Positions 11,394 to 12,096 of a stretch of 64,000 nucleotides of DNA are shown piece by piece. The position numbers and the translations under genes are program-made. Position 1 is the stretch's first letter, and every line of letters starts with the position of its first letter. A model generated the notes under the pieces. The model was given only the letters and a program-made list of their open reading frames with translations. It made no database searches and had not been told where the DNA came from. This DNA is from a virus: IMG/VR virus record IMGVR_UViG_3300029305_003176. The stretch is one strand, 5' to 3'.

Positions 11394-11511
11394 AGCTCTT
11401 TGGTGTAACGGTAGCACACGTAAATAATTGAGTCTAGTTAGACTTAAACTGCGAATTTACAAATTCCCATGCATACAGGACGTGGTTGGGGTTCGATTCC
11501 TCAAGGAGCTA
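11394..11511 (+). tRNA. tRNA-like gene with an ~44-nt intervening sequence in the anticodon stem (isotype undetermined; 10-nt loop after removal)
   Basis: Acceptor AGCTCTT/AGGAGCT (one G·U). D arm GTGT-AACGGTA-GCAC. T arm TGGGG-TTCGATT-CCTCA. After A26, 'CG' is followed by TAAATAATTGAG[hairpin AGTCTAGTTAGACT]TAAACTGCGAATTTACAAAT. Then TCC-CATGCATACA-GGACG gives stem CGTCC/GGACG. 118 nt in total. Confidence 0.45.
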
Positions 11512-11581
11512 TTTAGATGCAAACAGCAAATTTATTGGAACAATCTTTTAAATTGTAAAACCAGTGGCATCTAGTGAAATA

Positions 11582-11653
11582 TAGTCGCTCACAGCAATAT
11601 TATAAAATTATAAAACATCTGATTAGGGATCCGATAAGTTGAAATGGCGACTA
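11582..11653 (+). repeat. IR-flanked ~70-nt structured element (TAGTCGC…GCGACTA) containing a CAGCAATATTA motif
   Basis: 7-bp perfect terminal inverted repeat. Member of a four-copy family in the tRNA array. Confidence 0.35.
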
Positions 11654-11666
11654 GAAAATTGAATAT

Positions 11667-11786
11667 GGGGGAATAGGGAAGTGGTCAAACCCAAGAGAAC
11701 AAAACGTGTCTAGTTTGACACTAGTAGCAAAGAGACTGTAAATCTCTCGCCTATGGCATCGCTGGTTCGAATCCAGACTTTCCCCA
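11667..11786 (+). tRNA. tRNA-Tyr(GUA) with an ~37-nt insertion in the anticodon stem
   Basis: D arm GGG-AAGTGGTCAAA-CCC, like Firmicute tRNA-Tyr. Anticodon arm AGAGA-CTGTAAA-TCTCT. The 5' stem AGAGA is duplicated on both sides of ACAAAACGTGTCTAGTTTGACACTAGTAGCAA. Long variable arm. T loop TTCGAAT. The acceptor/T-stem register is slightly irregular. Confidence 0.5.
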
Positions 11787-11790
11787 CTAT

Positions 11791-11908
11791 GGAGAGGTAG
11801 CTCAGTTGGCTAGAGCACGAAATAATTGAGTATTGTATAATACTTAAACTGCAATTTTACATTGTCCTTTTAAGACCGGTGTCGTTGGTTCGAATCCAAC
11901 CCTCTCCA
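11791..11908 (+). tRNA. tRNA-Lys(UUU) interrupted by a 44-nt intervening sequence between positions 28/29
   Basis: Acceptor GGAGAGG/CCTCTCC is perfect. D arm GCTC-AGTTGGCTA-GAGC. T arm GTTGG-TTCGAAT-CCAAC. Exon 1 ends …GAGC-A-CG. The insert is AAATAATTGAG[AGTATTGTATAATACT]TAAACTGCAATTTTACATT. Exon 2 is GTC-CTTTTAA-GACCG. Joining gives a perfect stem CGGTC/GACCG and loop CUUUUAA. Confidence 0.6.
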
Positions 11909-11911
11909 ATA

Positions 11912-11975
11912 AAGACGGTATCAGCAATTTTATGGCTCAAACTGCTAATTTGAATACCTGAATACAAGCCGTCTT
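11912..11975 (+). repeat. IR-flanked 64-nt element (AAGACGG…CCGTCTT) with an anticodon-like hairpin TCAAA-CTGCTAA-TTTGA
   Basis: 7-bp terminal IR. Internal 5-bp stem with a 7-nt loop reading GCU. CAGCAATTTTA motif near the 5' end. No D or T arm, so it is tRNA-like but 'armless'. Confidence 0.4.
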
Positions 11976-11982
11976 GAATATG

Positions 11983-12096
11983 GAAGGTTAGCTCAATCGG
12001 TAGAGCACAGTAATAAGGGTCTAGTACAGACCTAAACCGCAATTTTCTTTTTGCATTGGGAGCCTGGTGTTAGAGGTTCGAGTCCTCTACCTTCCG
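11983..12096 (+). tRNA. tRNA-Pro(UGG) interrupted by a 42-nt intervening sequence between positions 29/30
   Basis: Acceptor GGAAGGT/ACCTTCC. D arm GCTC-AATCGGTA-GAGC. T arm AGAGG-TTCGAGT-CCTCT. Exon 1 ends …A-CAG. The insert is TAATAAGG[GTCTAGTACAGAC]CTAAACCGCAATTTTCTTTTT. Exon 2 is GC-ATTGGGA-GCCTG. Joining gives a perfect stem CAGGC/GCCTG and loop AUUGGGA, like the B. subtilis Pro loop UUUGGGA. Confidence 0.6.

Follow-up and report, generated by a model that had tools for sequence, protein, structure and literature searches.

The IMG/VR virus record IMGVR_UViG_3300029305_003176 is represented here by a stretch of 64,000 nucleotides (nt), the whole of which is called the window. Between positions 11394 and 12096 it contains four tRNA genes in which the 5' strand of the anticodon stem is split by inserts of 37–44 nt, and 120 nt downstream of these interrupted genes lies a gene for a protein of the DUF2828/DUF7788 type. 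The five genes are as follows.

11394..11511, + strand: tRNA-like gene 1, with an insert at 11422-11465, a hairpin at 11428-11447 and the motif CUGCGA at 11449-11454; Rfam tRNA score 36.6 bits.
11667..11786, + strand: tRNA-Tyr(GUA), class II, from ARAGORN with the -i option, with a 37-nt insert at 11699-11735 (3'-most register), a hairpin at 11706-11721 and a degenerate motif UAGCAA at 11725-11730.
11791..11908, + strand: tRNA-Lys(UUU), in which an insert of 44 nt (11820-11863) separates nt 28 from nt 29, with a hairpin at 11826-11847, the motif CUGCAA from 11849 and a 9-nt A/U tail; Rfam score 46.8 bits.
11982..12096, + strand: tRNA-Pro(UGG), in which an insert of 42 nt (12011-12052) separates nt 29 from nt 30, with a hairpin at 12017-12033 and the motif CCGCAA from 12037; Rfam score 46.6 bits.
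12218..13723, + strand: DUF2828/DUF7788 protein of 501 amino acids (phrog_850, 'RNA-binding protein'), with a Ro60-like alpha-solenoid ring and a vWA domain with the MIDAS motif DGSGS (303-307).

One exact deletion per gene yields canonical anticodon arms for the lysine, proline and tyrosine tRNAs. The lysine gene reads CG, 44 nt of insert, and then GUC-CUUUUAA-GACCG, and the proline gene reads CAG, 42 nt, and then GC-AUUGGGA-GCCUG. In the tyrosine gene, two copies of AGAGA flank a core of 32 nt, which makes an insert of 37 nt. The Rfam tRNA covariance model matches the lysine, proline and first genes from end to end (model positions 1-71, with the scores given above), and in each of the three matches 53–60 nt are skipped, in the anticodon arm only. 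An earlier note on this DNA, made from the sequence alone, had described four tRNA genes interrupted at one site in the anticodon stem, and this description holds; so do its coordinates and sequences, apart from details (tRNA-Pro starts at 11982 and not at 11983, and the insert hairpins have 6–9 bp and not 5–6 bp). If the inserts were removed, the exon-exon junctions expected are GAGCACG / GUCCUUUUAAGACCG, GGTAGAGCAGTA / CCATTACAAGGTAC and GGTAGAGCACG / TCCATGCTAAGGACG.

These genes are easily missed. In its default mode ARAGORN detects 5 of the 9 tRNA genes of the window and calls none of the four that are interrupted. With introns allowed it reports tRNA-Tyr(GUA) at 11667-11785 with an intron of 37 nt, while for three genes it gives Arg(GCG), Gln(UUG) and Cys(GCA). 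The last three calls amount to another cloverleaf, where the insert itself forms the anticodon arm, with an intron of 23–24 nt in the loop, and what looks like the anticodon arm is a long variable arm. This reading is forced, because ARAGORN places introns in the anticodon loop only. The resulting stems are A/U-rich and contain mismatches, no covariation for them is seen among relatives of these genes in other contigs, and the reading does not transfer to the 85 relatives listed, 67 of which obtain perfect arms when the insertion is placed in the stem. The possibility of a better fold without deletion, which the earlier note had raised, is thus not upheld, and the chance that the alternative cloverleaf is correct can be called negligible.

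Gene 1 differs somewhat from the others. Without its insert it has the stem CGUCC/GGACG and a 10-nt loop (CAUGCAUACA) around GCAUAC, so that it is better described as tRNA-like than as a canonical decoder. Its homologs in L143, L144 and L002 (L-numbers denote the loci or contigs gathered for comparison) have loops of 7–9 nt. Its D arm, GGUGUAACGGUAGCAC, is close to the D arms of permuted tRNA-like domains in the E. coli phage ECML-1 and the Bacillus phage Thrax2. A D arm of the form GGUGUAAYGGUAGCAC is common to tRNA-like genes in the window (11394-11511), L018:1534-1604, L143, L144 and L002, mostly with enlarged loops of 7–10 nt; the L018 gene is uninterrupted and has a 9-nt loop, CCUCCAAAA.

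Three of the window inserts, in different tRNAs, have near-identical flanks (AAUAAUUG ... UAAACUGCAAUUUUAC). A 14-nt 3' motif of the insert occurs three times in the window as against 0.69 copies expected, and all three copies lie at the same tRNA position. The syntenic contigs L143, L144 and L011, which come from independent samples, have these same genes, likewise interrupted but with sequence differences, and an assembly artefact, which the earlier note had named as a possible refutation, is therefore not the explanation.

The inserts belong to a family that extends well beyond this virus. An exact-pattern scan of viral contigs with the window consensus found genes interrupted in the same way in four further contigs, namely Thr, Asp, Pro and tRNA-like genes, and a looser pattern (a D arm, then CWGCAA, then a T arm) retrieved at least 120 stretches of viral contigs. 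Interrupted tRNAs were kept if they had 6–7 of 7 acceptor pairs and a distinct sequence, and among the matches listed there are at least 85 of these, to which the following counts refer. In 67 of the 85, taking out a single block of 39–62 nt gives back a stem of 5 bp and a loop of 7 nt with U33 and R37, and 19 anticodons are represented in this restored set. The insertion follows nt 28 or 29 in 60 of the 67 cleanly restored cases; in proline-type tRNAs it follows nt 31 or 32. The bodies of the interrupted tRNAs score 46–54 bits.

The layout of the insert is constant: an A/U linker of about 6–12 nt, a hairpin, 2–3 nt usually ending in A (NNA), the motif C(A/U/C)GCAA, an A/U tail of about 8–11 nt, and then the 3' exon. 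The hairpin has 7–8 bp across the family and covaries, with 5–6 pair types at each stem position, so its sequence is free while its pairing is kept; its loop is mostly a G-initiated tetraloop. Of 56 distinct inserts, 77% have a hairpin with 7 bp or more no farther than 4 nt from the motif, as against 4.8% of shuffled sequences. The nucleotides at the junctions of exon and insert are not conserved. The earlier note had held that the window inserts are related to each other and had proposed a search for their consensus in other phage genomes; both the shared layout of hairpin and motif and its recurrence in other contigs bear this out. A blastn search of the region against cultured phages gave an unrelated tRNA match only.

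Some members of the family deserve separate mention. The slot of tRNA-Lys at 11791-11908 has its ortholog at about 5788-5905 in L143, with the same acceptor stem and a similar D arm and insert, but with a different anticodon arm: the window gene is Lys UUU and the L143 gene is Asn GUU. From the sequences, this suggests that anticodon arms may be swapped around the conserved RNA module formed by hairpin and motif. One abundant interrupted family carries a serine anticodon, GCU (loop AUGCUAA), on a class I body with a short variable loop, in clusters where a normal tRNA-Ser(GCU) is also found; its members are in L027 (e.g. 6628-6745), L033, L043, L047, L049, L052, L065, L075, L078 and L087. Judged by sequence, these RNAs would either not be standard decoders or carry a different amino acid.

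A scan of one genome per species, covering 185,579 bacterial and archaeal species, found one true copy, on a 165-kb tRNA-rich contig of a fecal metagenome-assembled genome. This contig is probably a phage, which means that the element belongs to phages and not to the tRNA genes of their hosts. For two interrupted families, each found in at least a dozen contigs, neither an insert-free allele nor a spliced junction was present in 2.9 million viral contigs and 241 million metagenome records, the latter of which may not include transcriptomes.

The gene that accompanies the inserts is that of the DUF2828 protein, which the earlier note had passed over. Its model shows the architecture of Ro60, i.e. 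an alpha-helical, HEAT-like ring and a vWA domain with a MIDAS site, and the MIDAS motif DGSGS is invariant among homologs. At the level of sequence families the protein stands apart: Pfam gives DUF2828 and DUF7788 alone and no TROVE domain (PF05731), and phmmer against the PDB finds no Ro60. Homologs in mycobacteriophages are annotated as 'Ro-like RNA binding protein', and eukaryotic DUF2828 proteins exist and are mentioned in plant papers. Among the matches listed, 81 of the 120 loci that were retrieved by the RNA pattern alone contain a DUF2828 homolog. In all 81 it lies on the same strand as the tRNAs, in 68 directly downstream of them, and mostly within 74–1500 nt; such a protein is found in only 710 of 50,697 phage records (1.4%). 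When loci were instead retrieved by the protein, interrupted tRNAs were found just upstream in 7 of 8. A literature search on phage tRNA splicing and on the function of DUF2828 returned no characterisation of either.

The earlier note had stressed other neighbours, namely a kinase/phosphoesterase and an RNA ligase. Both are indeed nearby, and together with two promoter-like sites they make up the relevant surroundings of the RNA cluster.

10202..11113, + strand: fusion of a polynucleotide kinase (AAA_33/KTI12-like, related to CthPnkp and T4 Pnk) and an HD phosphoesterase, from Pfam and PDB sequence matches to 4gp7 and 1ltq (Pnk-HD).
11145..11265, + strand: upstream of the RNA cluster, a pair of promoter-like sites of the sigma-70 type, TTGACA-17-TACAAT and TTGACA-17-TAAGAT, both with an extended -10.
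16258..17439, + strand: Rnl5-type ATP-dependent RNA ligase (N-terminal OB fold and RNA_ligase), from Pfam and a phmmer match to the Naegleria gruberi RNA ligase 5cot at E = 2e-31.

Going by its sequence, the product of 10202-11113 is predicted to be an RNA end-healing enzyme. Enzymes of the Rnl5 family seal 3'-OH/5'-PO4 nicks in duplex RNA. The Pnk-HD and Rnl5 genes are also present in the syntenic L143 and L144. When the window proteins were compared by tblastn with the 142 loci gathered, each of these two had a homolog in one locus, and for this reason they are regarded as neighbourhood and not as part of the core. The general link between inserts and repair enzymes that the earlier note suggested is thus not borne out: the consistently linked gene is that of the DUF2828 protein, not the ligase or the kinase, and 'intron next to a ligase' captures only part of the finding. 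A Band 7/SPFH gene (window 14918-15841) was found in 22 loci by tblastn, second to DUF2828 in linkage (L001, L002, L012-L016, L034, L045, L048, L071 and L122). The promoter-like sites are consensus matches only, and their regional total is not above that in shuffles; they fit transcription of the cluster from the + strand.

The linkage to one protein gene on one strand points to a function at the RNA level, and it bears on the idea, also put forward in the earlier note, that the insert is selfish DNA, a tiny element aimed at this coding site in the anticodon stem, in which case the interrupted genes would be inactivated tRNA pseudogenes. Such an element would explain the near-identical flanks of three inserts in different tRNAs and the duplication of AGAGA around the tyrosine insert, and a homing-type HNH-AP2 endonuclease is encoded at 19551-20303. 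Yet the lysine and proline genes are without a target-site duplication, the tRNA exons are intact with compensatory changes across the insert, and the inserts have diverged strongly between phages while their hairpin pairing is kept. As two abundant families have no insert-free alleles, a recently mobile element is unlikely, and on the evidence as a whole we consider the selfish element very improbable.

The same module is also found outside tRNAs. The spacers of the two RNA clusters of the window contain seven further elements of the type stem, NNA, CAGCAA, in which a closing stem of 7–8 bp is followed by the motif directly after its 5' strand.

E1, 11513..11574, + strand: 8-bp closing stem UUAGAUGC/GCAUCUAG, then AA-CAGCAA and a mimic of an anticodon arm, ACAAU-CUUUUAA-AUUGU (Lys UUU).
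E2, 11582..11654, + strand: closing stem UAGUCGC/GCGACUA, UCA-CAGCAA, and an internal hairpin with the loop UUAGGGA on a mismatched stem.
E3, 11912..11976, + strand: closing stem AAGACGG/CCGUCUU, UAU-CAGCAA, and the mimic CAAA-CUGCUAA-UUUG (GCU).
E4, 12106..12164, + strand: closing stem AAGAUAC/GUAUCUU, UGC-CAGCAA, and the mimic UGGA-UUGUAAA-UCUA (GUA); directly upstream of the Ro60-like gene.
E5, 13740..13901, + strand: 8-bp stem UAGAUGUC/GGCAUCUA and AA-CCGCAA, enclosing a whole tRNA-Leu(AAG)-like gene at 13789-13880.
E6, 13909..13970, + strand: stem AAGGCAC/GUGCCUU, AAA-CAGCAA, and an internal hairpin with the loop CUUUUAA (Lys-like).
E7, 14005..14108, + strand: stem UAGACAU/GUGUCUA and AUG-CAGCAA-UUU, enclosing a weak tRNA-like gene at 14025-14098 with anticodon AAU.

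Hairpins that resemble anticodon arms are present in E1, E3, E4 and E6, with the loops CUUUUAA (twice), CUGCUAA and UUGUAAA. E2 is conserved in L143 and L001, E6 has a homolog in L001, and the closing stem of E1 shows compensatory changes in L143, as closing stems do in general between syntenic contigs. Over all loci, the tRNA strand carries 298 elements of this type and the other strand 23. Of 180 distinct elements, 95, as against 19 in shuffles, contain a hairpin with a stem of 4 bp or more and a 7-nt loop that has U33 and R37, and it mostly starts 8–13 nt after the motif. Since these spacer RNAs have no tRNA body they cannot decode, and their canonical anticodon loop must have been kept for another reason. 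It follows that a canonical arm is no proof of decoding or of splicing, and the main argument for splicing is weakened.

Cultured phages show the same pairing of RNA element and protein gene. Elements adjoin the DUF2828 gene, on the same strand, in the Felix O1-like E. coli phage ECML-1, the Listeria phage LMSP-25, the mycobacteriophage Faith1, the Campylobacter phage CP30A, the Klebsiella phage KP2025 and the Bacillus phage Thrax2, and Lak-B5 has one element beside its DUF2828 gene. In total, same-strand elements lie by the protein gene in 8 of the 9 cultured phage loci inspected, and the pairing is kept in cultured phages of at least five host phyla. In each of ECML-1, Thrax2, KP2025 and Faith1 a circularly permuted tRNA is found within one element, and it runs from anticodon arm through T arm and loop-closed acceptor stem to D arm. 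The interrupted tRNAs of the window are in turn a circular permutation of this permuted form. In the window the acceptor stem is open and the helix of the module ends in a tetraloop, whereas in the permuted form the RNA ends lie on the module helix and the acceptor stem is closed; in both topologies the module sits between D arm and anticodon arm. A different arrangement is seen at L015:3529-4000, where CAGCAA replaces or follows the D-arm region and in tRNA-Cys(GCA) lies between acceptor stem and anticodon arm, and where, in a tRNA(CAU), the acceptor stem itself serves as closing stem; these variants indicate that the module can occupy more than one position in a tRNA. In KP2025 (PP919962.1) a 432-nt 'tRNA-Arg-TCT' is annotated at L152:2363-2794, overlapping the start of the DUF2828 coding sequence. 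It is probably an artefact of a tRNA finder that was confronted with split or permuted tRNA-like pieces around the gene.

The reading that we favour, with moderate confidence, is that an RNA module widespread among phages, made up of a helix, NNA, C(A/U/C)GCAA, about 10 nt and an anticodon stem-loop, is present in the interrupted tRNA genes in its tRNA-embedded form, and that this module would be the cognate RNA of the Ro60-like protein. The locus would then be of the Ro60/Y-RNA type and not a case of conventional introns and splicing. Y RNAs adjoin Ro60 genes on the same strand, have tRNA-like domains and carry a conserved motif after the 5' strand of the terminal stem (PMC4201824), and in a Thermus phage the Ro60 gene is preceded, directly upstream, by two Y-like RNAs (PMC12135203). 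The bacterial and phage systems of Ro60 (Rsr/TROVE) and YrlA are alike to the window in that a gene for a ring-plus-vWA protein is adjoined by several small RNA genes on the same strand. Y RNAs have a terminal stem, a conserved motif right after its 5' strand and a tRNA-like domain, and the phage module is comparable to them in outline; the permuted tRNA cargo of ECML-1, Thrax2, KP2025 and Faith1, with T arm, closed acceptor stem and D arm, has the layout of YrlA. RNA repair genes are nearby in both, with rsr-yrlBA-rtcBA in Salmonella and Pnk-HD, Rnl5 or RtcB here.

There are also clear differences. The phage protein belongs to DUF2828/DUF7788 and not to Pfam TROVE, and the motif is NNA-CAGCAA instead of GNCGAA (or GGUCCGA). 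As canonical TROVE-type Y RNAs have GNCGAA at the corresponding position, CAGCAA would be specific to the DUF2828 branch. The terminal-stem layout is found in the spacer elements but is circularly permuted in the tRNA inserts, and the module of the window sits in an otherwise normal, non-permuted tRNA with open acceptor ends. YrlA is without a bare anticodon stem-loop, while the cargo of the module is often exactly that. The YrlA model (RF02553), with a gathering threshold of 69 bits, reaches only 21.8 bits in the window, across two adjacent tRNAs, and 21.7 bits in the Faith1 element. The closest known kind is nevertheless the Ro60/Y-RNA system with tRNA mimicry; new in comparison are the protein family, the RNA motif, the anticodon-arm cargo and the module that interrupts a normal tRNA gene. 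A description of this combination of module and protein was not found in the searchable literature.

A possible course of events is as follows. The cluster would be transcribed from the upstream sigma-70-type promoters, and its units would be released by host tRNA-processing enzymes. By analogy with Ro60, in which the helix lies on the surface and the conserved 5'-proximal motif or a single strand in or near the cavity, the ring protein may hold the helix and take up the single-stranded CAGCAA segment. Binding would place the protein beside an anticodon arm, and in the tRNA-embedded form at nt 28–30, across the helix from nt 40/41. The particle might then act on or shield anticodon arms in the course of infection, and its likeliest roles would be those of a bait or shield against host nucleases directed at the loop or stem of the anticodon arm, or of a platform for the neighbouring repair enzymes Pnk-HD and Rnl5 where these are present.

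Such nucleases are known from anti-phage defence. The AriB nuclease of the PARIS system nicks the tRNAs for Lys(UUU), Thr(UGU) and Asn(GUU) at 40/41 in the anticodon stem (PMC12409363). The commonest anticodons of the interrupted families are GUU, UGU and UUU, which account for 20 of 44 families, although this enrichment is biased because the search pattern demanded the D arm GGTAGAGCA. The commonest interrupted isoacceptors are thus the targets of AriB, and the AriB nick lies opposite the insertion site; a Y-RNA-like particle that would bait, shield or help to repair anticodon arms is favoured because the protein would sit opposite that site and because of this match of anticodons. As in the window, the Pnkp/Rnl1 repair of T4 and the AriB-resistant tRNA variants of T5 involve a phage tRNA cluster beside end-healing and sealing enzymes. 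The known countermeasures to tRNA-directed defence are, however, point substitutions or repair and not a 40-nt protein-binding module. We infer the link between the module and a defence system from these parallels, and a defensive, anti-nuclease function is speculative, to be graded lower than the partnership of RNA and protein.

The main competitor is a true intron. In this case the Ro60-like protein would recognise the hairpin and CAGCAA and recruit endonucleases or 3'-to-5' exonucleases, or chaperone the cut; the exons would remain paired to the uncut 3' strand, the nicked duplex would be sealed by Rnl5 in the window and by RtcB or host enzymes elsewhere, and the spacer elements would be processed alike. 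Several of the observations above are those expected of protein-dependent tRNA introns. For 67 of the 85 relatives, with 19 anticodons, exact deletion gives a stem of 5 bp and a loop of 7 nt that has U33 and R37, and the tRNA bodies are intact at 46–54 bits. Excision would yield a nicked duplex, the kind of substrate on which Rnl5 ligases act, and Pnk-HD and Rnl5 are both present in the window, L143 and L144; in the Listeria phage LMSP-25 an RtcB 'tRNA-splicing ligase' is encoded 1.3 kb from the DUF2828 gene. In some clusters a missing anticodon is filled by an interrupted tRNA, and the insert is fixed, without insert-free alleles, as one would expect of a harmless sequence that is removed. 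On the other hand, a Pfam scan of ten neighbouring open reading frames yielded no endonuclease candidate, the junction nucleotides are not conserved, and only one of the 142 loci has a homolog of the ligase and only one a homolog of the kinase. The module is also found on stand-alone mimics of anticodon arms and on permuted tRNAs with closed acceptor stems, which are never decoders and still have canonical loops. One abundant family puts a Ser(GCU) anticodon on a class I body beside a normal tRNA-Ser(GCU), and gene 1 and its homologs give loops of 7–10 nt that are mostly non-canonical. When interrupted tRNAs were compared with the normal set of the same cluster, complementarity was not significant in either direction, and the spliced junction was not found in the metagenome records, which may not include transcriptomes. 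Taken together, we consider genuine introns unlikely, yet with a distinctly greater chance than any of the other alternatives.

Against the Ro60/Y-RNA-type reading itself there are several points to be weighed. A KVP40-like Vibrio phage has the protein but no convincing element nearby, and 39 of the 120 loci retrieved by the pattern are without a DUF2828 homolog, many of these with short flanks. The interrupted genes have full, high-scoring tRNA bodies, open acceptor ends and many anticodons, as would be shown by decoders that need splicing, and there are some large clusters in which an anticodon absent from the normal set is provided by the interrupted tRNA (such as UCU in L026 and UUU in L002). 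The local Rnl5 ligase would be suited to the nick that excision produces. We infer the pairing of RNA and protein from gene linkage and analogy, and the anti-nuclease role is, with the bias in the anticodon counts, the more speculative part.

A small ribozyme that removes itself without proteins, by self-cleavage or self-splicing, is a further candidate. A conserved hairpin next to a conserved single-stranded motif would fit, and some small ribozymes, among them pistol, have about this size and are present in phages. A search of 11300-12200 against Rfam, however, gives no ribozyme family, even at E up to 10; an insert of 37–44 nt is too short for two cleavages and a ligation, the motif also occurs where there are no exons to join, and the junction nucleotides are not conserved. 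This makes a ribozyme highly implausible. Group I introns were considered separately and rejected, as the earlier note had done, in view of the short inserts, as against a ribozyme core (P1-P9) of at least about 200 nt, and no match to Rfam Intron_gpI in the same region at the gathering threshold or at E up to 10.

Archaeal introns of the bulge-helix-bulge type, cut by an EndA-like endonuclease, or an origin of the region from an archaeal virus, could also be imagined: the inserts are short and lie at a non-canonical site in the anticodon stem, as is reported for some archaeal tRNAs (PMC4090602). The minimum free energy and centroid folds of the four precursors contain no 3-nt bulge, 4-bp helix and 3-nt bulge, and they put the junctions in unpaired A/U-rich linkers that flank the hairpin, in agreement with the earlier note, which had set the inserts apart from archaeal introns. 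Moreover, tRNA-Tyr has the long variable arm of bacteria, the promoter-like sites are of the bacterial sigma-70 type, the relatives of the protein are found in phages of bacteria, and the Pfam scan of ten neighbouring open reading frames gives no EndA-type domain. The probability of this explanation is accordingly close to nil. In general, the protein-spliced introns of Archaea and Eukarya and the group I introns of bacterial tRNA genes are also inserts in the anticodon arm whose exact removal restores a canonical tRNA, but the site in the window is in the 5' strand of the stem and not at 37/38 or in the loop, the bulge-helix-bulge is absent, and the inserts are too short for group I.

Another comparison is with the 'enigmatic' tRNA introns of the Lak megaphages, the one precedent found for short introns in phage tRNAs, which are likewise short, not of group I and missed by ordinary bacterial tRNA finders (PMC6784885). 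These lie in the anticodon loop (37/38), are 70–93 nt long, have a T-arm or tRNA-like fold and are without the hairpin and CAGCAA (an example in Table S6 is a 93-nt loop insert with a T arm). As the window inserts are in the stem after nt 28/29 and without a T arm, a common family was rejected. Inserts of a Lak-like second class are found at L002:11196-11346 (- strand), L002:11817-11939 (- strand) and L019:5930-6077 (+ strand), and are absent from the window. They are 49–77 nt long, lie in the anticodon loop (33/34 or 37/38) and contain a T arm with an acceptor-like minihelix or a whole tRNA-like fold; in principle, they could be released by RNase P and RNase Z.

An unexpected resemblance is that to the Class I RNAs of Dictyostelium (RF01414). 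These are RNAs of about 60 nt with a short stem that joins the ends, an unpaired 11-nt motif CCUUACAGCAA by its 5' strand and a variable rest, and they are thought to be unique to dictyostelids (PMC7919456). The spacer elements are similar in the short end-joining stem and in the unpaired motif ...UACAGCAA(UUA) after its 5' strand, and also resemble them in a variable remainder, a length of about 60 nt, a CUG(U) 3' flank and the core ACAGCAA; the Rfam consensus of Class I is GaUcuCCUUACAGCAAUua...GagAuCUG. The Class I model, with a gathering threshold of 41.5 bits, gives full-length alignments of 23.1 and 19.6 bits in Listeria phage LMSP-25 (L147:2656-2711 and 2745-2800) and of 18.9 bits in Faith1 (L148:3529-3575). 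These elements lie beside DUF2828 genes and have the motif CU(U/A)ACAGCAAUUA and the CUG 3' flank of Class I. For the elements of the window the Class I model gives no match at E up to 10. Class I RNAs differ in that they are reported to be bound by an RRM protein and to be without a link to a Ro-like protein, and an anticodon-arm cargo is not described for them. It may be that the stem-NNA-CAGCAA module and the Class I RNAs are an ancient family of partner RNAs of DUF2828 Ro-like proteins in phages and eukaryotes, with anticodon arms displayed so as to neutralise tRNA-cutting immune nucleases, which would also be compatible with the inserts being introns.

Should the Ro60/Y-RNA-type reading be correct, an uncharacterised protein family, represented in over 700 sequenced phages and over 7,000 protein clusters from metagenomes, would gain a function as a relative of Ro60 with its own RNA partners, and these partners would have a simple, searchable signature. 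It would also mean that a whole set of phage tRNA genes escapes the standard tRNA finders. The role of tRNA mimicry in Ro60/Y-RNA particles would become testable with real anticodon arms in cultured phages of E. coli, Listeria, Mycobacterium and Campylobacter, a possible link to tRNA-targeting anti-phage defence is suggested, and the Class I RNAs of social amoebae, which have long lacked an explanation, could be approached from an unexpected side. If instead the inserts were obligatory tRNA introns, removed in a pathway that depends on the Ro60-like ring by endo- or exonucleolytic excision from the stem strand and sealing of the nick, which we put forward only tentatively as the less probable outcome, tRNA splicing would be known in a third form, the first in bacteria and phages to depend on protein.

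Some other features of the window are worth recording. The HNH and AP2 protein of 19551-20303 is of a type typical of phage homing endonucleases and has homologs in L092 and L093. The tRNA at 14778-14854 scores 47.3 bits with Rfam, but ARAGORN reports it as 'tRNA-???' with the two-base anticodon 'gc', and it has an apparent anticodon loop of 6 nt. Between tRNA-Trp and this last tRNA there are about 440 nt of non-coding sequence (14340-14777), with a T-arm-like AAGGTTCGAATCCTT near 14645 and a D-arm-like segment before it, and this may be another tRNA-like or permuted RNA.

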